Made by a program: the position numbers and the translations under genes. Positions 2,450 to 52,056 of a stretch of DNA of 64,000 nucleotides are shown here, in pieces; position 1 is the stretch's first letter; every line of letters starts with the position of its first letter. Source of the DNA: Terriglobia bacterium (GTDB lineage: Bacteria; Acidobacteriota; Terriglobia; JAIQFV01); NCBI GenBank assembly GCA_020073085.1, contig JAIQFV010000009.1:124162-188161 (forward strand). The letters are read 5' to 3'. The notes below the pieces were generated by a model. It did no database searches. It was not told where the DNA came from and worked only from the letters and a program-made list of their open reading frames with translations.

Positions 2450-3208
2450 TCATTTGCCGATAAGGCGTCCAAAGTCTCGAATCATCATGTCGATAGTATC
2501 TTCGCCAACAAGGATAAATCGCTCTGGAGATCGAAATGTGCACGTGCGACGGATGAATGGAGGAAGGAGTTTGCCCAAAAAAAACATAAATGAAAATCCC
2601 AAAAATATGAACTTGTAGCGCCAGTAATTGCTGAGCTTCCCACCGTACGGAATGAAAACTGACGTCCAAAACTTTTCGGCTGGGACGATGCTCACCCAAA
2701 CAGCCGCATCACTTGGAAAGTTGACCTCGCCGAGAAGATACAAGCGCAGTTCCTCTTCATACCGCGATCCAAGGCTTGGGGTGAGAAGCAGATCTTTTCC
2801 TGACTTCCAAGCATGCGCTGAACCCCGCCACAAAACACTCGCCACGAAGTAAGTGAGCTTCCCGACGTCTATTTCAGCGATATTCGCCGAGGAATAAACC
2901 TTGAGCCGATTGCTAAGCAGAGGCTGAGTTCGATCGATCAGAGCTTTCAACTTGAACCCTTCGCCAACTCTGGAACAATAATCGAGAACCCATCGCTCCC
3001 CGTTCACATCGAATCGTTCTTCGCATTCCATGCAGAGCACGTAGTCTGTAATCTGCTCATTCTTTTGTATGATAACCGCTGGCTTGATAACCACAGGTGG
3101 GGCACCTTCGGATTGCTGTATGAGCTTGTACGCTGCCTTTGGTATAAAGTGGCTCCTGCATAGATCGCGATTCAAGTGACAGAGTTTGCATCTTCGGACT
3201 GGACCCAT
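2450..3208 (-). CDS. hypothetical Cys-rich protein in an AT-rich islet; possibly damaged at its C-terminus
   Basis: 252 aa with an N-terminal CxxCx7CxxH-like cluster (CKLCHLNRDLCRSH) and a second CMEC pair. Local GC drops sharply over 2400-3500. The C-terminal 50 aa are hydrophobic and low-complexity and read through an A-rich tract. Confidence 0.4.
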   Translation of the reverse strand: MGPVRRCKLCHLNRDLCRSHFIPKAAYKLIQQSEGAPPVVIKPAVIIQKNEQITDYVLCMECEERFDVNGERWVLDYCSRVGEGFKLKALIDRTQPLLSNRLKVYSSANIAEIDVGKLTYFVASVLWRGSAHAWKSGKDLLLTPSLGSRYEEELRLYLLGEVNFPSDAAVWVSIVPAEKFWTSVFIPYGGKLSNYWRYKFIFLGFSFMFFLGKLLPPFIRRTCTFRSPERFILVGEDTIDMMIRDFGRLIGK

Positions 3209-3391
3209 TGTTAATCCTGCATCCTTAGGTAACTTAGAGGATTTTATTCAACATGGCTCCGCAACTTGCCTTTCCTCTTCATCCTCCTCGCGGGCATACT
3301 GGACAAGATCTCAATCGTTGCGCCGAAATTCAATTGTCACAAAAGTTCCCCCTGAAGCGGGGATGTGATTACCCCATCTTAAACCATCAAT

Positions 3392-3460
3392 CGATGGTGC
3401 CTGGTCTCAACAATCAACGAATCACCTTGTTGAATTTTGAAACCTACCCCCTATTTCTTT
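3392..3460. promoter_or_regulatory. conserved about 65-bp upstream element, copy 1 (upstream of 2450..3208)
   Basis: cgatggtgcctggtctcaacaatcaacgaatcaccttgttgaattttgaaacctaccc is about 88% identical to the copy at 5181-5240. Contains inverted caacaa...ttgttg. Confidence 0.4.
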
Positions 3461-3552
3461 CTGCCCTAATTCTTTCGGTAATATAATAGTGAAGTGAAGC
3501 CAATCAACTTCGCCCGATACTCTCCGTATGATTGATCCAGGCGGTCAGCGCA

Positions 3553-35114: not shown

Positions 35115-35520
35115 GGAAATGCCCCCGCCATAAAAACGTGCCGGGGCCACCCAAACCTTTCCGAAAAGCAATGTTTTGGTAGCCTCGCCGGCGCTTTCTG
35201 CCGGCGGGGGCTCTTCAGGATTGCGGCACCTTTGCTGATTCCTTCCCGACTGCGACCAACTGCCCCCGCCACAAAAACGTGGCGGGGCTACCAAACCTTT
35301 TCCGAAGGGCAATGTTTTGGTAGCCTCGCCGGCGCGTTTTGCCGGCGGGGGCTCTTCGGGTTTGCGTGAACCTAATCTGATCTTTGCCTGGTTGCTACGA
35401 ATTGCCCCCGCCACAAGAACGTGGCGGGGCTACCAAACCTTTTCCGAAGGGCAATGTTTTGGTAGCCTCGCCGGCGCGTTTTGCCGGCGGGGGCTTTTCG
35501 GGTTGGCGGGGCTACCAGAG
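35115..35520. repeat. tandem array 1 of structured palindromic repeat (3 units of about 140 bp, each containing 3 hairpins)
   Basis: Unit = tgcccccgccacaaaaacgtggcggggc (10-bp stem), then gctaccaaa...tttggtagc, then cgccggcgcgttttgccggcgg, closed by ggcgggggc. Three consecutive near-identical copies. Confidence 0.85.
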
Positions 35521-36059: not shown

Positions 36060-36450
36060 GCCATTTTGAAACAACTTTGGGTGGTGTGCCCAGCGGACTT
36101 CTGCCGGCCGCGACGGAATGCCCCCGCATTCAGAATGCGGAGAGGCGACCCTCACATCAGGTTCTTGATCGGAGTATTATCGGGAAGGAAAACCGGATGA
36201 GGGGTTTGTCTGGGAACCATTTCTTTGGAAGTCAGACCCATGAAAATTGACTATAAGAAAGTGATCCCCTTCACCGGATGGGTAAGCGTTCTGCTTATCT
36301 TGTGTATCTCCAAGTTTACGTCTGTTACACGGGATGGTTTTGTCCAAAGCACTCTCCTTGCCTGTCCGAGCATTACTTAGCCCATCGGTCGCAAGTAAGC
36401 GAGGGATTTTCCACGATTTCGCCCACAATCGCTGATTCCTTCCCAACCTC

Positions 36451-36748
36451 AACGAAGTGCCCCCGCCACAAAAACGTGGGGGGGCTACCAAACCTTTCCA
36501 GAAGGCAAAACTCGGGTGGCCTGCAATGAAATGCCCCCGCCACTAAAACGTGGCGGGGCTACCAAACCTTTCCAGAAGGCAAAACTCGGGTGGCCCGCAA
36601 CGAAATGCCCCCGCCACTAAACCGTGGCGGGGCTACCAAACCTTTCCAGAAGGCAAAACTCGGGTGGCCTGCAACGAAATGCCCCCGCCACTAAACCGTG
36701 GCGGGGCTACCAGACCTTTCCAGAGGGCAAAACTCGGGTGGCCTGCAA
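36451..36748. repeat. tandem array 2 of structured palindromic repeat (4 units of about 72 bp)
   Basis: Four near-identical copies of gaaatgcccccgccactaaaacgtggcggggctaccaaacctttccagaaggcaaaactcgggtggcctgcaac. Confidence 0.9.
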
Positions 36749-36833: not shown

Positions 36834-37598
36834 CTAGTGGAATGTCACAGTGGTGCGCTGTTCGGCGCTCTTGTAGCCTGGGCCGTTGGCCACGGAGAGG
36901 GTGAACTCGCAGGTCCCCGAGGCATGCGACCCTACCTGCGAAACGGTGGTGCGGATAATCGCGGTCTGGGGGTCCATCTGCTTGCTGACCCGCGTAAACT
37001 GTGCCCCGCGGACGCCGCCTCCGCCACAATCCAGCCCGTAGTTCACGCTCACCGGATCCCCGGGACCCAGCTTGCCGCCCTCATCCAGAACGACCAATTC
37101 GAGTTCCACCGCCGCGCCCGAGCTTGTCGCCGAGAGGATCTTGAAACTCTTGATCACAGGCACATAGGGAACCAGGACAATGGTCTCCGTCTTGGAATCG
37201 CCACCAGGCGTTTTCAGCAAGACGGAGCGCTCGCCGGCCGGGGTCCCTGGAGCCACCGTGAGCTGGAACTCCCACAGTTTGGCCCCTTTTCGGATCCGGC
37301 GGCCGGGTTCGAGAGCCTTCTCTCGAATGCCTTCGACCGTGAGGCCATCGGCAGGAGTAATGACAACACTCTGAAGAGGGCCGTGCGCGCCGAGCACTTC
37401 CAGGGGCGTCGTCTTGCCAATCACGGCCTGGGGCTTGTACCCGAAGAACGAAAGATCGTTGGAAGCAGCGGCGGCGCTTGCCGCCAGCAACCCCATCGCG
37501 ATCCATATCGAGGTAAACCAGAGGCCGAGCCGGGAGGGTCCTTGTTTCACGGCTTCATGACCCATTTGGGGGTGATGGGAAAGCGCAAGAATCTTCAT
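36834..37598 (-). CDS. secreted hypothetical protein, paralog A
   Basis: Signal peptide (MKILALSHH...WIAMGLLAASAAAAS). Shares a motif skeleton with paralog B (TPLEVLG..SVVITPADGLTVEGI / SVLLKTPGGDS / DCGGGG / SGTCEFTLSV). Confidence 0.5.
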   Translation of the reverse strand: MKILALSHHPQMGHEAVKQGPSRLGLWFTSIWIAMGLLAASAAAASNDLSFFGYKPQAVIGKTTPLEVLGAHGPLQSVVITPADGLTVEGIREKALEPGRRIRKGAKLWEFQLTVAPGTPAGERSVLLKTPGGDSKTETIVLVPYVPVIKSFKILSATSSGAAVELELVVLDEGGKLGPGDPVSVNYGLDCGGGGVRGAQFTRVSKQMDPQTAIIRTTVSQVGSHASGTCEFTLSVANGPGYKSAEQRTTVTFH

Positions 37599-37742
37599 TG
37601 GAATCTCCTTCTTGAGATTTGCTTCGTTCGTATCGCCCGTGACCAATTTCCACGCGCCAAAACTCCACTCCGAACAAACGAATGAGTAATGCCGTGCCAT
37701 CTTGGCAATTGCCGCCTTTCGAGATGAACTACCTTCCCAAGC

Positions 37743-37950
37743 GCAACGAAGTGCCCCCGCCACTAAAACGTGGCGGGGCTACCAAACCTTTCTAGAAGGC
37801 CAAACTCCGGTGGCCTGCAACGAAGTGCCCCCGCCACTAAAACGTGGCGGGGCTACCAAACCTTTCTAGAAGGCCAAACTCCGGCGGCCTGCAACGAAGT
37901 GCCCCCGCCACTAAAACGTGGCGGGGCTACCAAACCTTTCCGAAAGGTAA
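37743..37950. repeat. tandem array 3 of structured palindromic repeat (3 units of about 72 bp)
   Basis: Three near-identical copies of gcaacgaagtgcccccgccactaaaacgtggcggggctaccaaacctttctagaaggccaaactccggtggcct. Confidence 0.9.
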
Positions 37951-37952
37951 TG

Positions 37953-38693
37953 CTAGGGTAACTTCTCCGGCGCGAACTCAACGGGCACGGTGAGTTTGTT
38001 GCTTTCCGAAGTACTTCCCCCCTGATCATCATGGATCAGAAAAACCTCCAGGATGCATGTCCCGCTTGCGGAGACTTTCTGCAATTGACTTGAAAAGCTC
38101 TGCGTTGCATAGAAGACACTATTCTTGGGATCCTTCATGACAACCTTGTCCGGCTCGTGAAAACCGACTCCGTGACCGTCCCCGCATTGCAAGTGGTAAT
38201 TACACAGGGCAGCTTTTGGAGAGGTGATGTCACCCGCCGGGTCAAAGACTGAGAAACGAATCTTCAATCGCGCATCGACTGGTTCGGCTGAAAGAACAGT
38301 GAGGTTGCTGATGCGGGGAACATGGTCGGGAATATAGAGGGCCTTCGGATTCGAGCTTCCATCCGGGGTGATCACGGCAATTGACCGTTTCCCGGTATGA
38401 GCCCTCGGTTCGGCAAAGACCCGTACGGACCAGACCTTGATTCCCTCGCCCTGCTGTCTGCGATCATCGGGATCCGGTGTGCTCTCCTTGACATCACGAA
38501 CGGAAACACCTTCGGCAGGAGAGACTTCAACGGATGTCACTTGAAGATTTTTCCCAAAGCACTTGAACTCAGTCGTTTGTCCCCGTATCACCTGCAGATC
38601 GGAGTAGCCCGAGAATTGGACGTCAATTTTCTCGGCCTTCTGAACTCCTGTGATGAAAATCAATACGGCGATGGCCCACCCTACCCTTCTCAT
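37953..38693 (-). CDS. secreted hypothetical protein, paralog B
   Basis: Signal peptide MRRVGWAIAVLIFITGVQKA. Motifs TTEFKCFG..VTSVEVSPAEGVSVRDV / SIAVITPDGSS / QCGDGHG / SGTCILEVFL parallel paralog A. Confidence 0.5.
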   Translation of the reverse strand: MRRVGWAIAVLIFITGVQKAEKIDVQFSGYSDLQVIRGQTTEFKCFGKNLQVTSVEVSPAEGVSVRDVKESTPDPDDRRQQGEGIKVWSVRVFAEPRAHTGKRSIAVITPDGSSNPKALYIPDHVPRISNLTVLSAEPVDARLKIRFSVFDPAGDITSPKAALCNYHLQCGDGHGVGFHEPDKVVMKDPKNSVFYATQSFSSQLQKVSASGTCILEVFLIHDDQGGSTSESNKLTVPVEFAPEKLP

Positions 38694-38809
38694 GGTGACA
38701 CCTCCTTGACCGTCGGTTCCGAAGAAAAGGAACCGGATCGGGACTGCAGACAATTTCTAGGGTGCCCGTGCAAGGAACAAGGCCAGGGGGTGACCTTCTT
38801 TGAATTCTC

Positions 38810-39475
38810 CTATCTCGGCAGTCGAATCACTCGTCCATCCGGCGTCGTGACCGTGCCTTTTCCCCGGAGGTAAATATACCCCTTGTCTTTGTCGACCCTG
38901 AAGACCAGCGGCCAGCCGGGATCGCCCTCGAAGATGTGATCCTGGACCGTATGCCTTCCAATCCAGGTATGCTTCACGCCGTGAGCCCAAAGCACCGGAC
39001 GCAGTTGTCCATCGGGCCCCATACGAAAGGTGACGTTTCCTTCCAGGCGCGATCCGCCCCCAGGAATCGAACTGATCTGAATCTCTCCACGGTCAGGCTC
39101 AAGGTAACGGTCGATCAGCCGTTCATCCTGTAGCGCAAAACTCGGCTTCATTAAGACCGGAAGAAGCGCCGCCAACTGATGGGCGGTCTTTTGAGCGATT
39201 GTGCTCTGTGAGAGATTCACAAACATGAATAGAGCAAGCCACACCCCCAACACGGAGAAAAGCCCCCATTTCAGGGAGCGTATCACATTCGAATGCTGCG
39301 GTCGTGACTTCTCCGCCTTCCCTTCAGCCAGTTGCTGTGCTTGTCGCTGGAGCGCCAGTTTCTCTTCGTTCGGCAGCGCATCGAAACAGATCGTGCAGAT
39401 TAACGGACTCAGGTATCCATCTTCCTGAAAGTAGTAAATCGAAGGATAAACAGTGCCGCATCGCTCGCATTTCAT
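38810..39475 (-). CDS. zinc-ribbon / single-TM hypothetical protein
   Basis: MKCERCG...CTIC N-terminal zinc ribbon, central TM helix, C-terminal beta-rich domain. Confidence 0.5.
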   Translation of the reverse strand: MKCERCGTVYPSIYYFQEDGYLSPLICTICFDALPNEEKLALQRQAQQLAEGKAEKSRPQHSNVIRSLKWGLFSVLGVWLALFMFVNLSQSTIAQKTAHQLAALLPVLMKPSFALQDERLIDRYLEPDRGEIQISSIPGGGSRLEGNVTFRMGPDGQLRPVLWAHGVKHTWIGRHTVQDHIFEGDPGWPLVFRVDKDKGYIYLRGKGTVTTPDGRVIRLPR

Positions 39476-39664
39476 ACTTCGCCTCCTCCAGGGAAACGAG
39501 CACTACGGGTCTTCACATTTCAGTCCTACCCCAATCTTCACCAGGCAACACGGCCGTTTCAATCCGAGACCACCGGTGGATTCGAACCGCTCCGAACCGC
39601 AAGGCTCCCCTCTTGCATTCCGGGTGACGCCCTGGGCGGTTGCCGCAGTGAGGATTCAAATCTT

Positions 39665-40126
39665 CTACTCTTCCTGTTTTTCTTGACCCTCTCGAGCCGC
39701 AGGTGGCGGGCCGGTGTAACGGAACGCCTCCGACTTAACATAGAGCAGCTTGAACTCACCGCTGTGGGAGACGGTTTGACGGATCACCATCGCTCCATCT
39801 GCTCCCACGCGGCAGGCCTGCTTCTTCAATTCAGGCAAGGCCTCCTCAAAAACACCTTGTCGCCCGCGGGTTACCTTGTTCCGCCGCACGTAAACATCAA
39901 TTTGTGCCACAATCTCAAAAGGGCGTTCGGGCTTGACTTCCTGCAAGACTTCGATCTGGCAATCAGGAGGTTTGGCGGGCAGCGCGGGTCCGACCACCTT
40001 CACTTCACTTCGAACACCCGAAAAAAGTCCTCCCATCAGGAAGGCGAGATTGAGGAAGCCCGCGGCGAAGAAGAGCGTTGGGTTCCGATTAATAGAGGGG
40101 ATCATTTTCCACCCTTTAAAATGCAT
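39665..40126 (-). CDS. hypothetical membrane/secreted protein
   Basis: 153 aa, N-terminal hydrophobic segment. Confidence 0.45.
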   Translation of the reverse strand: MHFKGWKMIPSINRNPTLFFAAGFLNLAFLMGGLFSGVRSEVKVVGPALPAKPPDCQIEVLQEVKPERPFEIVAQIDVYVRRNKVTRGRQGVFEEALPELKKQACRVGADGAMVIRQTVSHSGEFKLLYVKSEAFRYTGPPPAAREGQEKQEE

Positions 40127-40599
40127 TCTGCCTGGTCCAGGACGGCATTGCTCCAGCTCTTCTGCCCGGCCCGCCCTACAAACCCCTTCTTGGTCTCTGC
40201 CGTGACCTTGGTGCCAGCCACATCACCATTCTTGGCCTCTTCCAGTTGAGCCACGACCGTCTCTCCGCCGGAACCCACGAACATCCCCATGTGATGCTTG
40301 CGGCTGGCTTCGATCGTTTTCCCGTCGTCTTTTTTGACCTCAAACTCAATGCCCTTCATGCCGTCGATCAGGGCTGCCTTGACCTTATCGATGGGATAAG
40401 GAAAAAAGCGCTCCTGTTTTCCTTTCTCCTTGCCTGCCTTGACTTCCAGGTTCTTACAGTCCAGCGGTCCGGCCGGCTGAGTCTTTTCGACCTTGCTTTT
40501 GTCCTTGTCCTTTCCAGCGCTGAAACTCCGGGTATTGCTGATCCCGGCGAGTCCGGCCATCAAAACAAACGTAAGAGCGAGAAATGATAAACGACGTCC
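40102..40599 (-). CDS. hypothetical secreted Lys-rich protein
   Basis: Signal peptide MGRRLSFLALTFVLMAGLAG. Confidence 0.45.
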   Translation of the reverse strand, partial: GRRLSFLALTFVLMAGLAGISNTRSFSAGKDKDKSKVEKTQPAGPLDCKNLEVKAGKEKGKQERFFPYPIDKVKAALIDGMKGIEFEVKKDDGKTIEASRKHHMGMFVGSGGETVVAQLEEAKNGDVAGTKVTAETKKGFVGRAGQKSWSNAVLDQAECILKGGK

Positions 40600-40704
40600 C
40601 ATAGCGTTTCTCCTTTTATGAGGTTGGTTGTGTTGACGCGCAGTTGTCCCGCTCTCGGGCACCACGCGAGCAAGATCTTCACTATCCCGGGATCGAACCC
40701 TCTC

Positions 40705-42555
40705 CTAATTCTTGGAGGCGGTCCAACTCGAGCTCCCCGAACCGCAGGGTGGATTTCCCGGGCTTCCATTGAGGATAAAATTCGCCGTTCCGCTGGCTTC
40801 AGAATTTGAACTGAACGATCCACTCAGCGAGAAGCTGACGGCAAACGGGGCGCTACTCGGACTGTTGACTGAAAAAGAGTTCCCTGAGATCGCGGCGCTC
40901 ATCGAGCTCATCGTCACGGTAAATTCGCCCGAACATCCGCCACCCGAGACTGCTCCGCCAAAGCCCAACGAGGTGATCCGATTGCCTGAAACCGTGAATG
41001 AAATCGACTTCCCCTGGCTCGTACTTCCCGACCAGCTTCCGTCCTTGGAGGTCCCTCCCGAATCGGTGATCGAGAAACTGAGCGTGTTGGAAGTCCCCGC
41101 CGGCGTAGTGACCGAGACCTGGCGACTCCCCGTCGAGGCGCCCGAAGCAATCGTCAGAAGGGCGGTGACCTGGGTTGCTGTCGACTGCAGATTGCTGAGG
41201 GAGAGTCCACTGGAAGGACTGAAATTGATGGCGCTGGTGTTACTCAGGTTTGAACCGAGGATGGTCAAACTGATCGCACCGCCCCGCTGACCATTATCCG
41301 GATCGACCACTGTTATCTGTGGCTGGCTGGGGGGGGCTGAACTGGTTGGAGCGCGGACATGGAGACGGTAGCTATATGCGGAACCCCCATCATGCCAGTA
41401 GTCCGCGACTCGAAGGTAGTAGGTCCCGTCTGCCGGCAGGACCACTTGAAGGAAAGAGTCGTTCTGCCAGATCAGTCCGTTCTGGTCGTTCTCCGTAATG
41501 ATCGTTCCATCGGCCTTTTCCAACCGCAGGACGGAATCCAGAGGGGAAGAACTGGACTGGGTATCGAGGAGAGCCGTCACGGTATCCCCTTGCCGCCCTG
41601 TAAACTTGAAATAGTCGACGTCGCCCGCCGCCCCAATCGATCCGGCCACAACGTTCGGACCGCTGAGGAAGAAGGCCAGACCGGTCGAATCATTAGGTTC
41701 GGATTCAGAGATCGGACCCTGGTTCAAATAGAAGGGGGCCAAGACGGGCCCTTGATCGACGGAGACCGTGCCATAAACACTTTGATCCACCCGCAAGGCC
41801 ACCACTCCGATGCTGGTAGCCGCTGAAACACTCACGGTCCCGCTGAAATTGTCCAAGCCGGGAAACAACTTGGACTCGTTCAAGAACTGCGCCATATGCC
41901 CTCCCGCAGGCAACGAGACCACGACGGTGTTCTGGAGGGTCCCATCGTTCCGGATCAGGTTCACCACAACTTTTTGCCCGGTGGTGGGGGGCGCATCAAA
42001 GGTGGGATTGGCGAAGGCGATCCCCGTGTTGATTCCAGCCGCGGTGTTCACCTCGGCGGGAAAGGAGAAGTGAAGGAAGGGGAATTGTTGCGCCACGCCC
42101 ATTTCGGTCACCACCGAGTTGCCCTGGGCATAACGGAAAACTTCCGACCCCCGGAGCGAGATCGCGTTGGGAGCGTGGAGGAGCGCATAACCCGCTCTCA
42201 GAGATCCCGTTGAGGCGACCCGCACAGTCTGAGTCCCGCCGGGATTTAAGTTGAAACTGAAGCTCGAACCGGTCCCCAGATTGGTCTCCACACTCAGCGG
42301 AGAACCATCGTCGCTGAAAAACGACAGGGTAATGTTGCCGGCTGCGCTCGTTCCCTGGTTCGTGATGAAAAGATCACTCGACCAGCCGCCACCGCCGGTG
42401 AATTGAGGGAAAACCGCATGCCATTCGGCATGAATCGGGAATGCGATCGCCAGCAGGGCAACGCAAAAAAAGGCGACCATGGGCCACATAAAACCTTTTT
42501 CCCTGCCATTCGCTCCAGCCCTCGGCCTAAAATGTGAGATTTGATATTTGATATT
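40705..42555 (-). CDS. large secreted protein with PPC (pre-peptidase C-terminal)-like domain and Ser-rich tail
   Basis: Signal peptide MWPMVAFFCVALLAIAFPIHA. SEPNDSTGLAFFLSGPNVVAGSIGAAGDVDYFKFTGRQGDTVTA resembles PPC/collagenase pre-peptidase domains. C-terminal poly-Ser/Gly region. Confidence 0.55.
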   Translation of the reverse strand, partial: NIKYQISHFRPRAGANGREKGFMWPMVAFFCVALLAIAFPIHAEWHAVFPQFTGGGGWSSDLFITNQGTSAAGNITLSFFSDDGSPLSVETNLGTGSSFSFNLNPGGTQTVRVASTGSLRAGYALLHAPNAISLRGSEVFRYAQGNSVVTEMGVAQQFPFLHFSFPAEVNTAAGINTGIAFANPTFDAPPTTGQKVVVNLIRNDGTLQNTVVVSLPAGGHMAQFLNESKLFPGLDNFSGTVSVSAATSIGVVALRVDQSVYGTVSVDQGPVLAPFYLNQGPISESEPNDSTGLAFFLSGPNVVAGSIGAAGDVDYFKFTGRQGDTVTALLDTQSSSSPLDSVLRLEKADGTIITENDQNGLIWQNDSFLQVVLPADGTYYLRVADYWHDGGSAYSYRLHVRAPTSSAPPSQPQITVVDPDNGQRGGAISLTILGSNLSNTSAINFSPSSGLSLSNLQSTATQVTALLTIASGASTGSRQVSVTTPAGTSNTLSFSITDSGGTSKDGSWSGSTSQGKSISFTVSGNRITSLGFGGAVSGGGCSGEFTVTMSSMSAAISGNSFSVNSPSSAPFAVSFSLSGSFSSNSEASGTANFILNGSPGNPPCGSGSSSWTASKN

Positions 42556-42660
42556 CATAGAGCCCCCTTTGACCTCCTTAAATGACAATAGTCATACATA
42601 GAATTGATTTGCCGCTCTTTGGGGATGTCAAGCCACGCGGCTTAAAGCATCTGTGGTACA

Positions 42661-42676
42661 GGCAACATCCCGGCCA
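42661..42676 (-). promoter_or_regulatory. candidate sigma-54 (-24/-12) promoter upstream of the secreted-protein gene cluster
   Basis: Minus-strand reading TGGCCG-GGATG-TTGCC has GG and GC at the canonical 10-nt spacing. It lies about 85-170 nt upstream of the possible start codons of the 40705..42555 gene, immediately downstream of a sigma-54 activator gene. Confidence 0.35.
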
Positions 42677-42947
42677 AAGCTGAGACTTTCACTGAACACC
42701 AAGCATCGCCCTTGAATTCAATGAAATGCATAGTTAAGGAGGGAGAACGGAGGGAGTCAACCCGTAGCAAGTCCCGCTACAGGACAAGGGCACAACTAAA
42801 CCCACTACACGGCTCGAAACCCAAGCAATCACGTGGACTGAGGACTATTTTCAATGGGGGTTCTGAGGCAAGAGTGTAGTTAGAGGTGCAACGCTCTGGG
42901 GACTGGGATGGTGGGATAAAGCTGAAGAGGAAGACCTTCTCGAATCT

Positions 42948-44759
42948 TCATACCGCATTTCGTTTTGACGATTTCTGGATGATGCGATGCAGTGTAACGC
43001 GGTGCATCCCGAGTCGCCGGGCCGCCTCGGATAGGTTGCCGCCGGCCTCTTTAATCACCCGCTCGGTGTATTGACGTTCCAACTCGGCGAATCTTCGCTT
43101 GGCTTGGCGCTTTCGATTCCGCAGGTCCTCAAGATCGACGACGGGCGTTTGCAGGACGTGATGGAAAACGTCCTTGGCCAGGCTGATCCGTTGCGAAGAG
43201 ATTTGCAGGATCTCTCGAGGCAAGTCCTCCGCCGCAAGCGTGTCTGCAGTGGCGAGGGCGACCATGCGATGAATCATGTTCTCGAGTTCCCTCACATTGC
43301 CCGGAAAGGGATACTCCCGCAGCCAGTCGTAGACTTCCCTTTCGACGCTCATCGACCGGCCGTAGAGGCGAGAGAATTTTTCAAGGAAATAATCAACGAG
43401 CAACGGGATATCGTCCCGGCGCTGACGCAGGGCGGGGACATGAACGGGAATGACATTCAGGCGGTAATAGAGAGCGTCCTGGAAGTTCCCCTTCTCCACC
43501 ATCTCTTTCAAGTCCTTGCTGGTCGCGGCCACCATACGCACATCCACTCGAAGGGTCTCTTTCCCGCCCAGCCTTTGAAGTTCGCTGGATTGCAGGAAGC
43601 GCAGCAACTTGGCTTGGAGTGGATACGCCAGTTCGCCCACCTCATCGAGAAAGATCGTGCCCCCTTCCGCTTGTTCGATTCGACCGATGTATTGTTCGGA
43701 AGCCCCGGTGAAAGCCCCCTTCTCATGGCCAAACAACTCCGACTCCATCAGATTTTCAGGGATGGCCGCACAACAAATCGCGGAAAAAGGACGATCCCGG
43801 CGCGCGCTTCGATAATGAAGGGCCCGGGCCACCAGTTCCTTTCCCGACCCGCTTTCCCCCTCAATCAGGATGGTGGCCGGAGAATCCGCCAGCCGCTCAA
43901 TTACTTCTAAAAGCTTCAGAATCGATGGATCCCTGCCGACGATTTCCTTCGAGGCCCTCGCATCATCAAAGAAGACTCGGGAACTGGATTTGAAGAGAAT
44001 GGGCAGAAGGCGGTAATGCCGCAGATAGGACAGTGCCAATCGGCTGACCGGCTCGAGCAAATCCAAGTCCTCCTGATCGAAGGCGCAAGGCACGGTATTG
44101 TTTTCCAGGTAAATGGCTCCGATGGCCCGGTGGTCCTCGATGAGGGGGGCAGCCAAGACCGATTTGAGGTGGAGCCCTGCGATGCTCTCCTCTTTGGCGA
44201 AATCCGGGTGATGAGATGCATCTTCAAGAAGCAATGGCCTCGCCCGCTCAAATACCTCCCGAAGCAGGGTGCGGCTGAAGCGGTACTCCCGGAGCGCGAG
44301 GTGGGTGGTATCGAAGTGGCGCGCCGCAATAACATCGGCTTCCGTGGATTCGGGAGAATAAAAGAGGATGAACCCGCGTTCGGCGCCGACCGCCTCAATG
44401 ACCCGGTCAAGCAACAGCTCACAGAACGCGCCCAAAGATGTGGCGGAAGCATCGAGCAATGCCGTCAGCAATGTCGCGAGTCGGCTTCCGGCTTGATCGC
44501 TCCTCAACATTTCCGCTTCCTGCCGGAGAGGCTTCAGAAAATCCCGATGCGCCAGCTCTTCGAGCAGGGCAAGGCGCTGATGGAGTTTCTTGAGCTGACC
44601 ACTGAGGCTCTGCAACCGGCGATCCGCCGTATCTCCCTGCAGGGTTCTCACCGATTCCAGCAGTGCAGAAACCGAGTGTTGACAGGATCGCGTTTCCTGC
44701 TCGAGCAGTGCCCTAAATGTCTCAGTGAGATTTATGATCCGATCGGCTTGGGAGTTCAT
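42948..44759 (-). CDS. sigma-54-dependent Fis-family transcriptional activator (GAF + AAA+ + HTH)
   Basis: [15 protein letters not shown] Walker [22 protein letters not shown] motif, C-terminal Fis-type HTH ([24 protein letters not shown]). N-terminal coiled-coil and GAF region. Confidence 0.9.
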
Positions 44760-44940: not shown

Positions 44941-47900
44941 CTAATCCAGCCGATATCCCCACAGGGTGCGGTGTCGCGTGTAGAGGCGTAATGATTTGTC
45001 GTGTCCCCCCGCGGCCAATTGCCGACCGTCGGGGGAGAAGGCCACTGAAAGTACCGGGGCTGAATGGGTCCCGATTTGTGCTATCAGATGTCGCCGCTTT
45101 ACATCCCACAGGGAAATGGATTGGTCGTCGCCCGCGGAGGCCACTTGCCGACCATCTGGGGAGATTGCGATCGACTTGATGCGCGCCCCGTGCTGCCCCA
45201 GGATGCCGACCTGACGTAGCGGCCGGGTCTCCCAAAGCCGCACAAATCCCTGATCTTCTCCCGTCACCAGCCATTTCCCGTCCGGGGAGAAGCGTGCAGA
45301 TATCAATTGAATGCCCTTGAGATCCTCTTTTGCGACGATCTGCCAGCTTGTCGTATCCCAGATGACAAGGTACCCACGATCCGTGACGCACAGCAGCCAG
45401 CGTCCATCCTTGGAAAAATCCTCCCCGTAAATGTGGCCCAAATTCTCGGAGAAGAACAGCCTGTTTAAATCGATGACCAGCCGACCGTCGTTGGAATCGA
45501 AGACCGCCGATGAACCGCTCACCCAATGTCCGTCGGGAGAAACCTCGACGCAGTAACCGGGGAGACCGATTTCGGACTGATGTTTCAACGCCCGAAGTGG
45601 TTGGCCGCTATCGAGGCCCCAGAGAATGATGCCTCCATCCTGATCACTGGAGGCGACCCACTTCCCGTCCGGCGAAAAGGTGACCCCATCCACGCGTGTG
45701 TTATGCCCAACCAGTACGGCGACTTTCCCCCGTCTCCTGGCGTCCCAGATGATCACCGATCGGTCATCACTGGCGGAGGCGATCTGATTCCCGTCAGGCG
45801 AGAAGGCGACAGCGCGGACCGCGGCGCTGTGCTCATTCAAGTTGGCGACCCGTTCGTGCTCTGCCACATCCCACAGCAGAATCGCACCATCCCCATGCGT
45901 GGAGACCAGCCATCGTCCGTCGGGGGAAAAGGCAAGACTCCAAACGATCGCCGTGTGTTCAAAACGGGTGAGCTTTTTGTGCGTTAATGCGTCCCACAAC
46001 ACGATGTCTTCCGCCCCTGAGGCGACCCATCGTCCGTCGGGGGAGTACGCCACGGCGCGCCCATGATCATCGTGAACGTCCTCGAGGGCGACAAGCTTTC
46101 GGTGGGTCAAATCTCCTGTCAGACTCAATTCGTAAAAGGCAACCTCCCCAAGGCTCGTTACTGTGACCGCATGTCGGGCGTCGGGGGATAGCGCCGCCCA
46201 GTTTCCCGCGCGTTCGGGATGAAAACCGCTGGCCATGGGTTGACCCGTGAGGACGTCGAAAACCTCTCCCGAGGCGGCCATAAGTTGCCGGCTATCCGGC
46301 GAAAAAATCAGGGTGCCGTAACTCTGCTGCAAAGGTAACTCGCGGATCTTTTGCCACGGTCCGACGCTCCAGAGAATGGTCTGCTCTCCCGAACTCGCCA
46401 GCCATCTGCCATCGGGGGAAAAGGCAACCCCCTGCACCGGCCCGGTGTGTCCATGCAAGACAGCCGCTTTCTGAAGGCGGGTCGAGTCCCAGACCATGAC
46501 GGTCTTATCAGCCCCCCCGGTGGCGAACCAGCGTCCGTCCGGAGAGAATGCGACTGAAGTCACCCAGCCGGAATGATCCGTTAGCGTCGCAATCCGCAGT
46601 CGACGCGCAAAGTCCCAGACAATGACCTTGGAATCCTCACCACAGGAAACCAGCAAGCGTCCGTCCGGAGAAAAAGCAGCGCATCGGGCCGCCGCCTCAT
46701 GACCATCCCTCATCCGGAAGCCGTCCCACTCTTCCCGCACGGAAAGCGCCGCCGCCCCCAAAGTCGCACTCACGGCCAGAGTCACGGCCAGGACGCTCGA
46801 CTTGAAAAGTCCCAGGCGCAAGCTCCTCCGCAATAGCTCGCCTTCCCGTTTGCCCCGCTCCAGATCGGAGTGACGGCGAATGAGCAGTAGCTTGCTCAAG
46901 GGGATGCGCGTGTTTCGATCGACCGAGTAGTTGGAGAGATACTGCCGGAACAAACGGTTGGCTCGTTGTGTCGCGTCCATCACCTTGCCGGTCAACTGAT
47001 TGATCTTGTCAATGAGGTACTCGTGGGTCAACTCATACCTCCGGGAATCCTCATCCTGGATTTCACAGATCAGTCGCGACTCAACAAAGAGATTCAACAA
47101 CGGATCGACAATTCCCCGGCTCCGCTGGGTTCTTTTGACGATCTCATCGTGCGGGAGGTTCAAACGGGTGTTCTCGTCGGAAATCAAGCTGCGTAAGATG
47201 AGCGTGGCAGTCTGGTGGTCCCCCGAGGCCGCAATGACATCCTCCAGAAAGCTGAAGACCAGGGCCTCTTTTCTGCCCGCACGCCGATATTCCTCCAATG
47301 TGAAAATACGCCGGCGTTGCAACTGCTCGCCGACGATTTGGAGCTCGGAGGGTAAAACGTCGCCGTCCACGGCCAGGTCGTGCGCGATCTGCCGGCTCAA
47401 CCCGGTTTCGAAGGGCAGGTTGGCGTGTTCCACACAGGAGCTGATAATCTTTTCGGCCCGTGCCTCGTCAAAAGTGTGCAGGTGATAGAGCCTTCCACTC
47501 AATAACGGATTAGGAATACGATCGGCAAACTCCTCATTGATCCAATGGAGGAAATCGCTTCGCATGGAAAAGAGGAACTTCACGGGGAGATCGGCCGAGT
47601 GGTAGCACTCAGTAACGAAGGAGAGGAATGGCTCCCGATCCTTTTTCGCCCGGAAGTTAATGAAAAACTCTTCAAATTGATCGCAAATGATCAGGATCCC
47701 GGTGTCGAGCTCTCCAGCGATCCGGCGCAAGTAAGGGAGCGGCGGCTCAGTGGAATGGGGGGAGAGCTGGCTTCTCTTGCGGCACTCCTCCATCAGCGTC
47801 GTCAACGGGTCCTTGTAGGAACGACAGTAGATGGGAAATTGGCCTTCCTCCCACAGCTTTGGAATCAGCCCGGCTCTCAAGACCGATGTCTTCCCGCAAC

Positions 47901-49233
47901 CGGAGTCTCCGAACAATACTCCAAAGCGAAATTCGGGCTGCGAGACCCGCTCAAACAACGCGGCGGTATCCACCTCCCGACCGTGGAAGCGATCACGATC
48001 CGCCTCCTGGAACGGTAACAATCCTCTGAATGCGGCTCCCCTGGGAAGTGAAAGGATTGGCTTTCGAACCCGCCGTCGAAGGACAAGGTAGCCAATCAAG
48101 CCCAACGACGCCAAAAACAAGAACCCAAGGGCACGCCACGGCCCGTTCCGTTGAGGTTGAAAAATGAGCCAATCGATCCCCGGTGCCAGGGCCATCAGAA
48201 CGGAAAGAACCAGCAGCCCTCTGCGGGCCAAGCCTGAGAATCTTTCTTGAGCGTATGCATGCGTGCGGGGACCTTCCGCCGCAAAGTCTTCTGAAACGAT
48301 ATCAGCCAGCGGGTTTTCCAGCCCTGTCTCTTGTTGGAGCTGTTGTCTCAACTTCTTCAGGTCGAACAGCATTTCCTCGGCGGAACGGTACCGTTGGTCT
48401 CGATCTTTACTCATCGCCTTTCTGACGATGCTCTCCAACTCCAAGGGAACGTCCCTCCGAAAGGTGCTGAGCGGGGGGGCTTCCCGGGTGAGAATCGCAT
48501 GCAGGATTTCAGATGCATTTTCCCCTTCAAACGGCCTTCGGGCACTGACCGCCTGATAGATTACAACTCCCAGGGAGTAAATGTCGGTCCAGGTATTGGG
48601 TCGCTCGCCACGCGCCTGCTCCGGAGACATGAAACTGATTGTTCCGGAAATTCCATCGGCTTTGGGGGGAGGAACATCCGGTCGGGACTCGGCAGGGCGG
48701 ACATCCTTCGAGGCTGCTCCGCGATTTTCCCCCTTCATCCCCGCTGGCAGGGGCGCGGTGAGCATTGCCAGTCCGAAATCAAGGACCTTTACCCGATCCT
48801 CTCCTCCAAGCATGATGTTGGAGCTCTTCAGGTCGCAATGAACCATGCCGACGACGTGGGCTGCCTTCAAGGCTTCTGCCGTCTGGATCGCAATATTAAG
48901 GGTCCTGCCGATGTCGAGCGGTCCACTTTTCAATTCGCTGGCAAGAGTTCTTCCCTCGACATACTCCATCACAATGTAAGGCCGGCCTTCCTCCTGGCCG
49001 AATTCGTGAATGGTGGCGATGTTGGGGTGATTCAGAGCGGCTGCCCGGCGGGCTTCACTTATCAGGCCGTCTCTCGCCTCAGGGTCAGATAAACCATCCG
49101 AAGGAAGGAACTTCAGAGCGACCGTTCGCCCCAGACGCAGGTCTTCCGCCTTGTACACTTCACCCAAGCTGCCTAGACCCACGCGCTCCAGGATACGGAA
49201 ATGAGCGATCCTATGAACCATCATCATTTTCAC
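44941..49233 (-). CDS. Ser/Thr protein kinase - STAND P-loop NTPase - WD40 repeat multidomain protein
   Basis: N-terminal Hanks kinase (GLGSLGEVYKA...VALKFL, HCDLKSSNIML, DFGLA). TM segments. P-loop FGDSGCGKTSVLRAGL of a NACHT/AAA-like STAND module. At least 12 C-terminal WD40 blades (HSGWVTSVAFSPDGRW..WD). Confidence 0.9.
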   Translation of the reverse strand: MKMMMVHRIAHFRILERVGLGSLGEVYKAEDLRLGRTVALKFLPSDGLSDPEARDGLISEARRAAALNHPNIATIHEFGQEEGRPYIVMEYVEGRTLASELKSGPLDIGRTLNIAIQTAEALKAAHVVGMVHCDLKSSNIMLGGEDRVKVLDFGLAMLTAPLPAGMKGENRGAASKDVRPAESRPDVPPPKADGISGTISFMSPEQARGERPNTWTDIYSLGVVIYQAVSARRPFEGENASEILHAILTREAPPLSTFRRDVPLELESIVRKAMSKDRDQRYRSAEEMLFDLKKLRQQLQQETGLENPLADIVSEDFAAEGPRTHAYAQERFSGLARRGLLVLSVLMALAPGIDWLIFQPQRNGPWRALGFLFLASLGLIGYLVLRRRVRKPILSLPRGAAFRGLLPFQEADRDRFHGREVDTAALFERVSQPEFRFGVLFGDSGCGKTSVLRAGLIPKLWEEGQFPIYCRSYKDPLTTLMEECRKRSQLSPHSTEPPLPYLRRIAGELDTGILIICDQFEEFFINFRAKKDREPFLSFVTECYHSADLPVKFLFSMRSDFLHWINEEFADRIPNPLLSGRLYHLHTFDEARAEKIISSCVEHANLPFETGLSRQIAHDLAVDGDVLPSELQIVGEQLQRRRIFTLEEYRRAGRKEALVFSFLEDVIAASGDHQTATLILRSLISDENTRLNLPHDEIVKRTQRSRGIVDPLLNLFVESRLICEIQDEDSRRYELTHEYLIDKINQLTGKVMDATQRANRLFRQYLSNYSVDRNTRIPLSKLLLIRRHSDLERGKREGELLRRSLRLGLFKSSVLAVTLAVSATLGAAALSVREEWDGFRMRDGHEAAARCAAFSPDGRLLVSCGEDSKVIVWDFARRLRIATLTDHSGWVTSVAFSPDGRWFATGGADKTVMVWDSTRLQKAAVLHGHTGPVQGVAFSPDGRWLASSGEQTILWSVGPWQKIRELPLQQSYGTLIFSPDSRQLMAASGEVFDVLTGQPMASGFHPERAGNWAALSPDARHAVTVTSLGEVAFYELSLTGDLTHRKLVALEDVHDDHGRAVAYSPDGRWVASGAEDIVLWDALTHKKLTRFEHTAIVWSLAFSPDGRWLVSTHGDGAILLWDVAEHERVANLNEHSAAVRAVAFSPDGNQIASASDDRSVIIWDARRRGKVAVLVGHNTRVDGVTFSPDGKWVASSDQDGGIILWGLDSGQPLRALKHQSEIGLPGYCVEVSPDGHWVSGSSAVFDSNDGRLVIDLNRLFFSENLGHIYGEDFSKDGRWLLCVTDRGYLVIWDTTSWQIVAKEDLKGIQLISARFSPDGKWLVTGEDQGFVRLWETRPLRQVGILGQHGARIKSIAISPDGRQVASAGDDQSISLWDVKRRHLIAQIGTHSAPVLSVAFSPDGRQLAAGGHDKSLRLYTRHRTLWGYRLD

Positions 49234-49779: not shown

Positions 49780-52056
49780 ATGAAGTTACTCAAAGGGATT
49801 GCTTTTATGATTATTTTACTCGGAGCGGCCTCAGTCCTCTACTTCGCCCAGGAAGCAGAAGACCGGACGCTTCTTCCCTGGTCGATCGTTCAGAAGATTG
49901 TGGACGAGGCCTCCGGGGACCGCGCCATGCATACAATGCTCGAAATCGCCCCCTATCCACGGCACCGGAGCAAGGAAGAATACGAGAACAAGTTTCTGGA
50001 GAGTGCCTACATTGAGCGAAGGGCCAGGGAAGCGGGGCTTGATGGAGTCGCCGTGGAACGCTTTCCAGCGGGAGGCGGTCCGGCGACAGGAAGAGGGGAT
50101 GCAGGAAACACACAAGCACCCGCAAATCCGTTCGCGGGCAAGACATGGGAGGGTTCGATCGGCCAGCTCTGGCTGGTGGAGCCCCGGCCCCATAAGCTAC
50201 TCGACTATGCGGATGTCCCGACCATGCTGTGCGCGAACAGCGCAAATGGCGACTGGACAGCCGAACTGATTGACGTCGGGAACGGGTCCCGCCCCGAAGA
50301 TTACAAGGACAGGGATGTCAAAGGGAAGATCGTTCTCGGGTCCGCCGCCCCCGGCGTGCTTCAGCGTATGGCCGTATTTGAGCGGGATGCGATCGGAGTG
50401 ATTTCATATAACTCCTTGCGACCGGAGTACGATGTCCAGCAGTCCCTCTGGGAAGGCATTCAGACTCAGCCTCCCAATCAACCCCGGTTTGCCGGGAAGA
50501 AAGCGGGATTCGGTTTCAAGCTCAATGCCGAGATGGGACGCGAACTGCGCGCGCAGTTGGATCGAGGGACTAAGGTAAAACTGCGTGCCGTCGTCCAGGC
50601 GGATTGGTATCCCAACACCATGGAAACCGTGTTTGCCCGGATCGCGGGGGACGGGTCGAGCGAACAGGAGATCATACTCTCTGCACATCTCTACGAAGGC
50701 TACTTGAAACAAGGCGCCAACGATGATGCCAGTGGCAGCGCTGCCATCCTCGAGGTCGCACGAACACTGAACGCCTTGATCCACAGTGGACAGCTCTCCC
50801 GACCCCGCCGGACCATCAATTTTCTGTGGGTGCCGGAAATCAGCGGTACCACGGCCTGGCTCCGCGCCCATGAGGAAATCCGCAAGAGACTCATCAATGA
50901 CATTAACATGGACATGGTGGGGGAAGGACTACAGAAGAACAACGCCTCCTTTGTGTTGAGCCGCACTCCCGATACGACGCCCAACTATCTGAACGACGTG
51001 ATGCAGAGCGTTTTCGAATTCCTTGGAAACACCAACCGGGAACGGGTCCGCTATCGCGCCGGCGGCTATGCCATGTCCTACCCGATCGTTTCTTCGATCG
51101 GTTCCGCCGAACCGTTCCACTTCAACATCGATAAGCATTATGGGGCCTCGGACCATGTGGTTTACCTCAACAATGGAATCCCGGCCACAATGATGGGCGT
51201 GTGGCCGGACATGTGGTATCACTCCTCCGGCGATACTCCCGACAAGGCGGATCCCACCCAGCTGAGGCGCGCGGTGGTGCTCAGCGCCATGGGGGCTTAT
51301 ATTGTCGCCTCCGCGGACGATGCCGGAGCCGCACGGATTGGGGCTGAGTCTCTGGCGAGAGGGGACGCCCGCATCGGCGACGCCCTTCGGAAAGGGCTTG
51401 CTTACCTTGCCGACTGGAACTCAGACCTGCTCCCCTCCGCGTTTAAGGAAGCCATCAATACAGTTCGTCATCAGGGAAGAATTGAAAAAGCCACGTTCGA
51501 ATCTGTGCAAACGCTGCTGCCGTCATCGATGACCGATGAAGCCAAGGAGAAAACGGTCGACCCGTTCCTTTCGATCATCGATGAAAGAACCTGGGTGGCA
51601 GAGAAACAGGTTACGGAGTTTTATGTCCTCCGGACAAAACGGGCTCCACCGGAGCTCATTTTGACTGCGGACGAGGCCAAGGCGGCACGGTTGATCCCGG
51701 AGCGAATCGGAGGTCAGGGAGGATTTGGGGGCGGGATCGCACGACTCCTCGAGCAACAACCGGAAGCCGACCGCAAAGCCCTCGAAGAGGCGTTGAGGAA
51801 GGTGCCCCAGCATATGACCGCGGAACTCAATGTAATGCTGGCCCGCAATGGAAACAAGGATGATCCCCGCAAGTATTCGGTTCTCGAGATCCGCGACTTT
51901 CTCTCGGGAGAATTTGAACCCATTACCCTGCAGGACATGACGGCGTACTTCAATGCCCAGGAAAGACTCAAGTCGATTCGATTGATCGAAAGAGCGGAGG
52001 AACCGGCGGCGGCGCCGAAAGGTCAGAAGTCGAAAGGTAAGAAGGGTGGAAGATAA
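49780..52056 (+). CDS. M28 family zinc peptidase with PA domain (secreted)
   Basis: Signal peptide. GANDDASGSAAILEVARTL and HSSGDTPD metal-ligand motifs typical of M28. Confidence 0.7.
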   Translation: MKLLKGIAFMIILLGAASVLYFAQEAEDRTLLPWSIVQKIVDEASGDRAMHTMLEIAPYPRHRSKEEYENKFLESAYIERRAREAGLDGVAVERFPAGGGPATGRGDAGNTQAPANPFAGKTWEGSIGQLWLVEPRPHKLLDYADVPTMLCANSANGDWTAELIDVGNGSRPEDYKDRDVKGKIVLGSAAPGVLQRMAVFERDAIGVISYNSLRPEYDVQQSLWEGIQTQPPNQPRFAGKKAGFGFKLNAEMGRELRAQLDRGTKVKLRAVVQADWYPNTMETVFARIAGDGSSEQEIILSAHLYEGYLKQGANDDASGSAAILEVARTLNALIHSGQLSRPRRTINFLWVPEISGTTAWLRAHEEIRKRLINDINMDMVGEGLQKNNASFVLSRTPDTTPNYLNDVMQSVFEFLGNTNRERVRYRAGGYAMSYPIVSSIGSAEPFHFNIDKHYGASDHVVYLNNGIPATMMGVWPDMWYHSSGDTPDKADPTQLRRAVVLSAMGAYIVASADDAGAARIGAESLARGDARIGDALRKGLAYLADWNSDLLPSAFKEAINTVRHQGRIEKATFESVQTLLPSSMTDEAKEKTVDPFLSIIDERTWVAEKQVTEFYVLRTKRAPPELILTADEAKAARLIPERIGGQGGFGGGIARLLEQQPEADRKALEEALRKVPQHMTAELNVMLARNGNKDDPRKYSVLEIRDFLSGEFEPITLQDMTAYFNAQERLKSIRLIERAEEPAAAPKGQKSKGKKGGR

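Follow-up and report, generated by a model that had tools for sequence, protein, structure and literature searches.

A candidate regulatory cassette of Acidobacteriota in which genes for a kinase-nSTAND1-WD40 protein and a sigma-54 activator precede lineage-specific genes for exported proteins

Results

Genes and layout of the locus

We analyzed a stretch of 64,000 nucleotides (hereafter the window) from contig JAIQFV010000009.1, which belongs to a metagenome-assembled genome (MAG) of Terriglobia, phylum Acidobacteriota. The locus examined in this study consists of a gene for a protein with kinase, nSTAND1 and WD40 domains, a gene for a sigma-54 activator, and a cluster of genes, here called cargo genes, for exported or membrane proteins. 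All of these genes are on the minus strand and transcription runs from high to low coordinates, in the order of kinase gene, activator gene and cargo cluster, with an intergenic gap of 390 bp between the activator gene and the first cargo gene. On balance, we think that this locus is one copy of a previously undescribed regulatory cassette that is conserved across soil Acidobacteriota and carries lineage-specific exported cargo. A preliminary description, made from the letters of the window, had proposed a secreted-protein module controlled by signal transduction and read from a -24/-12 promoter. This core interpretation is supported by the conserved promoter geometry, the gene pair and the exported first gene found in the comparisons below, and the description as a whole was partly confirmed.

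The activator gene is located at 42948-44759 (minus strand) and encodes a protein of 603 aa. It had been described as a sigma-54 enhancer-binding protein of the GAF/AAA+/Fis type, and the Pfam domains GAF, Sigma54_activat, AAA_lid_14 and HTH_8 bear this out. That is, a family-specific N-terminal segment of about 105 aa is followed by a GAF domain (residues 107-242), an AAA+ domain with the GAFTGA loop (273-439), the lid, and a Fis-type helix-turn-helix (HTH; 558-592). The AAA+ domain matched PF00158 with 225 bits against a cut-off of 20, the translation contains EKGAFTGA, and HTH_8 matched with 37 bits against a cut-off of 22. The protein scored below the curated cut-offs of NifA (TIGR01817; 374 bits against 529), PrsR (TIGR02915; 321 bits against 503), NorR, NtrC and every other named activator, and there are no nif genes in the window. 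The N-terminal segment and GAF domain define a small family, with 21 representatives at E<=1e-30 among 1.84 billion proteins; relatives with 31-47% identity were obtained in the same search.

The kinase gene is located at 44941-49233 (minus strand). Its product of 1430 aa (1428 aa as called on the source contigs) had been described as a Hanks kinase fused to a STAND NTPase and WD40 repeats, and Pfam gave the same domains. The Hanks-type Ser/Thr kinase domain occupies residues 13-286 (Pkinase, PF00069; 130 bits, cut-off 32) and possesses the catalytic Lys, the Asp of the catalytic loop and the DFG motif. The nSTAND1 NTPase domain occupies residues 402-757 (PF20703; 153 bits, cut-off 27) and possesses both Walker motifs. 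The C-terminal part of about 600 aa consists of WD40 repeats arranged as two propellers (Pfam WD40, 303 bits). In 16 orthologues, the catalytic Lys (VALK), HCDLK and DFG of this non-RD kinase are all kept, and so are Walker A (GxSGxGKTS) and Walker B (DQFEEF).

The protein also has three hydrophobic segments, of which the first two (about 340-358 and 367-385) lie between the kinase domain and nSTAND1 and the third (about 814-832) lies after nSTAND1. All three recur in the 16 orthologues, with the second below threshold in four of them. From this hydropathy we infer that the kinase and nSTAND1 domains are cytoplasmic and that the WD40 propellers are extracytoplasmic, because the kinase and the NTPase both need cytoplasmic ATP and the number of membrane passes is odd. 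The predicted topology is more in keeping with a receptor kinase than with an NLR-like immune sensor in the cytosol. The mean pairwise identity was 67% for nSTAND1, the most conserved part of the protein, 52-54% for WD40, and 50% for the kinase domain. Since WD40 is about as conserved as the kinase domain, the putative sensor is not hypervariable, and in this respect it appears unlike an immune receptor, for which diversifying selection would be expected.

Conservation of the kinase-activator pair

A genome scan found 22 activator loci in MAGs of Terriglobia, Blastocatellia and Pyrinomonadaceae, and contig look-ups and a metagenome scan added more loci, which are designated here by L and a number. 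In the metagenome scan, an alignment of four N-terminal sequences drew mostly generic GAF proteins and only L036-L043 were informative; an alignment of 11 distant activator N-termini was too divergent for such a scan. The extent of pairing given here refers to the loci with genomic context. Thirty loci, from the two Acidobacteriota classes Terriglobia and Blastocatellia, had enough upstream DNA to be informative.

In 28 of the 30 loci, the activator gene is directly preceded, on the same strand, by a gene for a full-length, colinear kinase-nSTAND1-WD40 orthologue. The identity of these orthologues was 74-82% in Terriglobia and 50-57% in Blastocatellia. The gap between the two genes is usually 9-220 nt and is enlarged to about 650-960 nt in the lineage of L007, L015 and L016; in L007 (3920-4774), two tandem genes for 123-aa PDDEXK_3 proteins are inserted there. 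The genes further upstream differ between loci, for example an M28 peptidase gene in the window and MacB/FtsX in L012. The activator of L042, a distant relative with 44% identity, adjoins a Ser/Thr kinase gene in divergent orientation. Judged by this conservation, the kinase gene belongs to the regulatory unit.

Control region between activator and cargo

The 390-bp gap contains a palindrome, TGTAGCGGGACTTGCTACG, at 42763-42781. It has the form TGTAGC-N7-GCTACA and is the only match to this form in the window, and we propose it as an upstream activating sequence (UAS). A degenerate distal palindrome, CGTTGCACCTCTAACTACA, is located at 42875-42893, 112 bp upstream of the proximal one. With three mismatches to TGTAGC-N7-GCTACA it is a weak call; the matching site of L010 has two mismatches. 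The preliminary description had noted a -24/-12-like motif, and it is indeed present: TGGCCGGGATGTTGCC at 42661-42676 on the coding (minus) strand, about 100 nt before the ATG at 42558. It starts 105 nt after the start of the palindrome and has the spacing of a sigma-54 promoter, that is, GG-N10-GC, resembling TGGCAC-N5-TTGC.

The spacer between activator and cargo was aligned for three lineages with 75-81% identity between their first cargo proteins. In otherwise diverged DNA, four conserved islands stand out, namely TGTAGC-N7-GCTACA, a short CATTGAATTCA block, the -24/-12 element, and the ribosome-binding site and start codon of the first cargo gene. The proximal palindrome is invariant in this alignment, and the positions orthologous to the -24/-12 element read TGGCATGCGCTTTGCT in L007 and TGGTTGGGATGTTGCC in L010.

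The elements were then counted in 28 loci (the window and 27 related loci of Acidobacteriota), with at most one mismatch allowed in the palindrome. At least one palindrome was found within 450 nt 3' of the activator stop codon in 27 of the 28 loci. There were 38 matches in the 12.6 kb after the activators and two in the other 416 kb, an enrichment of about 630-fold. Many loci have two copies 100-118 bp apart, and the distal copy is clear in most loci of Blastocatellia. The pattern GG-N9-TG was found 103-108 nt after the palindrome start in 25 of the 28 loci, compared to 0-1 of 28 at six control offsets. The promoter consensus of 23 loci was tGGCACg-N3-gTTG, in which the -24 half is canonical.

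The half-sites of the palindrome are conserved in sequence, its spacer is free, and changes in one arm occur without compensation in the other. This pattern points to binding by a protein and away from an RNA hairpin. We also considered that the palindrome might terminate the activator gene and ruled this out, because there is no T-run, the two copies lie about 112 bp apart, and the half-sites are conserved without compensation. From its position in the related loci, we take TGGCCGGGATGTTGCC to be a real, conserved sigma-54-type promoter, and we think it most likely that the adjacent activator binds to the palindrome. That both elements are functional and belong to this activator seems to us very likely.

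A near-palindrome, TGAAGC-N7-GCTACA, is present about 100 nt upstream of the kinase start as well in L015 and L016.

Cargo proteins in the window

The cluster had been described as a run of seven genes for exported or membrane proteins. The exported or membrane nature was borne out, in that all six proteins possess an N-terminal signal peptide or membrane segment as judged from their sequences, and the number was reduced: the gene calls on identical metagenome contigs, from which we took the gene boundaries, give six genes at 36834-42558. All are on the minus strand. The window cargo had no match in PADLOC, PHROGs or NCBIfam and a single match in Pfam, the PPC domain of the first protein, which had already been noted.

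Cargo gene 1 (40705-42558) encodes an exported protein of 617 aa, starting at the ATG at 42558, instead of the roughly 580 aa given earlier. The structure prediction suggested in the preliminary description gave a confident AlphaFold2 model for this protein (predicted local distance difference test, pLDDT, 89.9), with a signal helix and five beta-sandwich domains. In the model, these appear to be two novel N-terminal domains, the PPC domain, an IPT/TIG-like domain and a C-terminal domain. The modeled PPC domain resembles the collagen-binding domains of the clostridial collagenases ColG and ColH (template modeling score, TM, 0.76-0.85), and the other matches are multi-Ig proteins. Structure comparison revealed no catalytic domain in the model. 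Homologues of the 617-aa protein are common in Acidobacteriota, in several genomic contexts. In L008 and L011, homologues with 66-67% identity lie among genes for an M49 peptidase, hypothetical proteins of 311-314 aa, NAD synthase and IleRS, with no activator or kinase nearby and no sigma-54 match upstream of the homologue. Therefore, this cargo family is not tied to the cassette, as would fit a slot that captures genes.

Cargo gene 2 (40102-40602) encodes 166 aa with a signal peptide and no known domain; it is present in L007 and L016 and absent in L010. Cargo gene 3 (39665-40105), which overlaps gene 2 by 4 nt, encodes 146 aa with an N-terminal membrane or signal segment and no known domain. 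Cargo gene 4 (38810-39475) encodes a protein of 221 aa in which an N-terminal zinc ribbon (CxxC...CxxC) is followed by a single membrane helix and, at the C-terminus, by a beta-rich domain. This family comprises only six clusters, all from Terriglobia, and the AlphaFold2 model obtained from the six-sequence alignment was unusable (pLDDT 46). Cargo genes 5 (37953-38693; 246 aa) and 6 (36834-37598; 254 aa) encode exported paralogues with 30% identity (BLASTP, E = 4e-25). Between them lie 2.7 copies of a 74-bp hairpin repeat, and because of these copies the co-transcription of gene 6 with gene 5 is uncertain. The C-termini of the cargo proteins have no PEP-CTERM tail.

Exchange of cargo between lineages

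The gene that follows the promoter has the same orientation in nearly all loci and starts about 270-660 nt after the activator stop codon. The first cargo genes belong to unrelated families across the loci, and nearly all of their products have signal peptides. The Terriglobia group has the PPC/Ig family in this place; L012, L023 and L032 have a 358-aa family, L013 and L026 beta-helix/NosD proteins, L024 a laminin-G protein, L021 a 1758-aa Kelch/PD40/HYR protein, L025 a collagen-repeat protein, L027 and L034 small DUF2846 and GNA1162-like lipoproteins, and L022 DUF7453. CarboxypepD_reg proteins are found in the cargo of L038, and several first cargo proteins of other loci had no domain match. 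In L036, the first cargo gene (2847-4259) encodes a radical SAM enzyme of 470 aa about 270 nt after the promoter, and a WD40 protein comes next.

In Blastocatellia, the cargo amounts to one to a few genes, bordered on one side by the activator and on the other by conserved CHAD, Mo-oxidoreductase and MerR genes. Even loci closely related to that of the window differ, in that L010 lacks the genes for the 166-aa and 146-aa proteins and L007 and L016 have extra genes.

Common C-terminal tails were observed in two groups of cargo. In L013, which has five paralogues after the activator, and in L024, L026 and L033, differing N-terminal domains, among them beta-helix and laminin-G, are joined to a common conserved tail ending in GPKKTIDVFVDRAVGGNPFKPFGTWSKTF, and the 358-aa family shares a tail ending in GANAFCANPANVSGTSNCALCPKP. 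Both tails may serve in sorting or docking. The cargo of the window has neither of them.

Repeats and neighboring genes

Tandem arrays of a 74-bp unit are located at 36450-36748, 37743-37940 and 35116-35509, the third with a period of 142 bp. Each unit possesses a strong GC hairpin, CCCCGCCAC-N6-GTGGCGGGG. Ten copies of this hairpin were found, all within 35.1-37.9 kb of the window, compared to none expected by chance. The arrays flank the last cargo gene and separate this 254-aa gene from the preceding gene. Only contigs of the same species were found to carry the repeats; L001 has fewer hairpin matches downstream of the last cargo gene than the window. A CRISPR array was ruled out, as the whole unit is repeated at 95-99% identity and there are no unique spacers. 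The repeats may be terminators, RNA-stabilizing elements or recombination sites. In each unit upstream of the last cargo gene, the sequence GGGGCACTTCGTTGCA occurs (first base at 37757, 37831 and 37905, minus strand). With its GG-N10-GC spacing and TTGCA as the -12 half, this is a weak sigma-54-like match; it overlaps the 3' arm of the hairpin, and no palindrome accompanies it. This match is probably coincidental.

The neighborhood of the cassette in the window consists of ordinary chromosomal genes. Just upstream of the kinase gene is the M28 peptidase gene (49780-52056, plus strand), which is also present in L010, a relative with 81% identity, and beyond it is a gene for a PAS/HisKA/HATPase histidine kinase (52204-54000, minus strand). 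No link of either gene to the cassette was found in distant loci. Scans of the window with Rfam and for tRNA genes gave no matches.

Discussion

Proposed mechanism

From the comparisons described above, we propose a mechanism with three parts. The first would be a membrane-spanning receptor, with the Hanks kinase and nSTAND1 in the cytoplasm and the double WD40 propeller of about 600 aa in the periplasm. The second would be a dedicated sigma-54 activator encoded just downstream of the receptor gene. The third would be a fixed control region, made up of one palindrome, or two at a distance of about 112 bp, and of a promoter located about 105 bp beyond the proximal copy. The propellers may sense an extracytoplasmic signal, the STAND NTPase may act as a switch or an oligomerization module, and the kinase may then modify, most likely through phosphorylation of Ser/Thr residues, the N-terminal and GAF region of the activator. 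Residues that are conserved in an alignment of the activators, Thr44, Ser138/Thr139 and Ser162/Thr164, are candidate sites. The activator bound to the palindrome would contact the sigma-54 holoenzyme at the promoter, a distance of about ten helical turns, and would turn on the lineage-specific genes, which mostly seem to encode exported, non-enzymatic, beta-rich proteins of a binding type. In the window, the cargo would be the five-domain Ig/PPC protein, four small orphan proteins that are exported or anchored in the membrane, and the zinc-ribbon membrane protein. The likely output would be an inducible remodeling of the cell surface or matrix.

The steps of this proposal do not deserve equal confidence. 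We lean slightly towards the view that the kinase controls the activator. The more far-reaching idea of a plug-in cassette, that is, a three-pass receptor acting on a dedicated activator, which in turn serves a fixed slot that repeatedly receives new exported proteins, is put forward tentatively. For any specific function of a cargo protein our confidence is low.

Observations against the proposal and alternative explanations

Several observations weigh against the proposal. All source genomes are MAGs from uncultured bacteria, and the related loci share ancestry, so that the counts given above overstate the number of independent observations. The motif of the window departs from the ideal in having TGGCCG and TTGCC, and TGGC-N7-TTGC occurs three times in the window compared to 3.2 expected; taken alone, the motif is not significant. 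The support for the sigma-54 promoter proposed in the preliminary description comes from its conserved position and neighboring elements in the related loci. The -12 half is TTGC in Terriglobia and often TTGA or TTGT in Blastocatellia. The radical SAM gene of L036 means that the cargo is not always an exported structural protein; the gap before this gene may hold a gene for a small peptide, in which case the cargo may be of the type of ribosomally synthesized and post-translationally modified peptides (RiPPs). L037 and L038 keep the activator, the palindrome and the promoter, have an FtsX permease gene upstream, and have no kinase within 10 kb upstream of the activator, and therefore the activator can exist without an adjacent kinase. 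Finally, Pfam found no FHA or other known phospho-recognition domain in the activator, and a small molecule could signal through the GAF domain, either in place of the kinase or in addition to it.

The last three of these points lend themselves to another explanation, in which the activator is independent of the kinase. That is, the GAF domain would sense a small molecule, as it does in NifA, NorR or FhlA, and switch on the cargo genes, and the kinase would be a co-inherited neighbor with other substrates. GAF domains are classical ligand sensors, and the kinase-free loci and the lack of a phospho-binding domain also speak for this explanation. In contrast, it does not readily account for the same-strand adjacency in 28 of 30 loci, which extends over Terriglobia and Blastocatellia down to about 50% identity while the flanking genes change, or for the kinase gene that adjoins the distant activator of L042 in the other orientation. 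We regard the explanation as unlikely, if one to be taken seriously, and prefer a receptor kinase that acts on the activator.

It is also conceivable that the kinase-nSTAND1-WD40 protein is an NLR-like sensor of invaders and that the locus serves defense or conflict, with the cargo as effectors or surface decoys. The preliminary description had remarked on such antiviral systems. In favor of this, nSTAND1 was defined in predicted counter-invader systems, with kinases among the effector domains (PMC8195603; PMC10907252), and a constant core whose cargo is rapidly exchanged at a fixed site of the chromosome is reminiscent of defense islands. On the other hand, PADLOC matched only generic profiles of kinases (PD-T4-6, mad6) and AAA+ proteins (RtcR). 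For the known anti-phage systems MADS, PD-T4-6 and BREX PglW, these were matches of the kinase domain alone, the scores were far below the cut-offs (MADS6, 108 against 460; PglW, 59 against 990), and partner genes are missing. PADLOC and PHROGs gave no match for the cargo, which has no recognizable toxin, nuclease or peptidase domain, the WD40 propellers are predicted to be periplasmic and are not hypervariable, and the surrounding genes are ordinary chromosomal ones. The antiviral remark is not upheld by these results, and we consider a defense function improbable.

It is very improbable that the -24/-12 match arose by chance and that the cluster depends on an unrecognized promoter of the sigma-70 type or on read-through from the activator gene. 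Little is known of acidobacterial promoters, and the motif is no more frequent in the window than expected, but its position is conserved while the flanks diverge, 25 of the 28 loci share its fixed spacing to the palindrome, the gene next to it codes for a sigma-54 activator, and no sigma-70-like site was found in the 390-bp gap.

Significance

Acidobacteriota are among the most abundant soil bacteria, and to our knowledge almost nothing is known of their gene regulation. STAND and WD40 proteins are mostly discussed as immune or cell-death switches, and the usual inputs of sigma-54 activators are two-component systems or small ligands. In the receptor-to-activator proposal, these two signaling worlds, which have been treated separately, are joined; if the activator is indeed under the control of the kinase, transcription would be added to the outputs of STAND NTPases, and the cassette would provide the first case of such an NTPase acting on transcription through sigma-54. 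If true, the proposal would also offer a general way to put lineage-specific surface or matrix proteins under one conserved environmental signal. Conserved regulators with exchangeable cargo mark a set of orphan secreted proteins whose production probably shares one condition, and this may be an entry to their roles. For experiments, the results provide a candidate site (TGTAGC-N7-GCTACA) for one activator family, a promoter at a fixed distance from it, and a proposed partner receptor.

Comparison with known systems

The activator possesses GAF, AAA+ (GAFTGA) and Fis-type HTH domains in the same order as NifA-type activators, and its best solved relative is a Nif-specific regulatory protein (9qq6). 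As with NifA, a TGT...ACA-type inverted repeat lies about 100 bp upstream of the -24/-12 promoter. The NifA upstream activating sequence is TGT-N10-ACA, whereas the palindrome of the cassette is TGT-N13-ACA and often occurs in two copies about 112 bp apart. Unlike NifA, the activator has the extra family-specific N-terminal segment and falls short of the NifA cut-off, its proposed targets are exported proteins instead of nif genes, and it is paired with a Hanks kinase.

Jelsbak, Givskov and Kaiser reportedly linked FHA-domain enhancer-binding proteins of Myxococcus xanthus to Ser/Thr kinases in 2005. The concept of a Hanks-type kinase feeding a sigma-54 activator is the same as that proposed here. 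In contrast to the M. xanthus proteins, the activator of the window has no FHA domain, its family-specific N-terminal segment and GAF domain forming the sensor region, and its kinase is fused to a STAND NTPase and WD40 repeats, is encoded immediately upstream, and belongs to another phylum.

The sigma-54 system of the PEP-CTERM box, PrsK/PrsR, is another one to compare. There too, a sigma-54 activator is proposed to control exported proteins in soil bacteria, and the PrsR model, although its cut-off is not reached, is among the better NCBIfam matches of our activator. Unlike PrsR, this activator has no receiver domain and no histidine kinase partner, and the cargo lacks the PEP-CTERM tail.

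The receptor can be compared with PknD of M. tuberculosis, a receptor Hanks kinase with a beta-propeller sensor, and with PkwA of Thermomonospora. All have an N-terminal PknB-like kinase and a C-terminal beta-propeller, and the WD40 domain of PkwA (5yzv) is among the best solved relatives of the WD40 region of the window protein. In the receptor of the cassette, unlike in these proteins, a STAND NTPase and a membrane hairpin separate the kinase from the last membrane segment, there are two propellers, and the proposed output is a dedicated sigma-54 activator.

The nSTAND1 domain itself was defined in predicted bacterial counter-invader or conflict systems by Kaur et al. 2021 (PMC8195603), where an N-terminal kinase with a C-terminal repeat array is a listed layout and sigma-54 is not mentioned. 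The window protein shares this layout and the Pfam nSTAND1 match. It differs from the conflict systems in the three predicted membrane passes, the WD40 propellers predicted to lie outside, the pairing with a transcription activator, the lack of a death-like, TIR, caspase or other effector-associated domain, and repeats that are not hypervariable. In our search of the literature, no paper turned up that connects sigma-54 activators with nSTAND1 or with kinase-WD40 proteins. Regulation by a sigma-54 activator is known, and what seems to be new in this locus is the unusual receptor partner and the exchangeable target slot.

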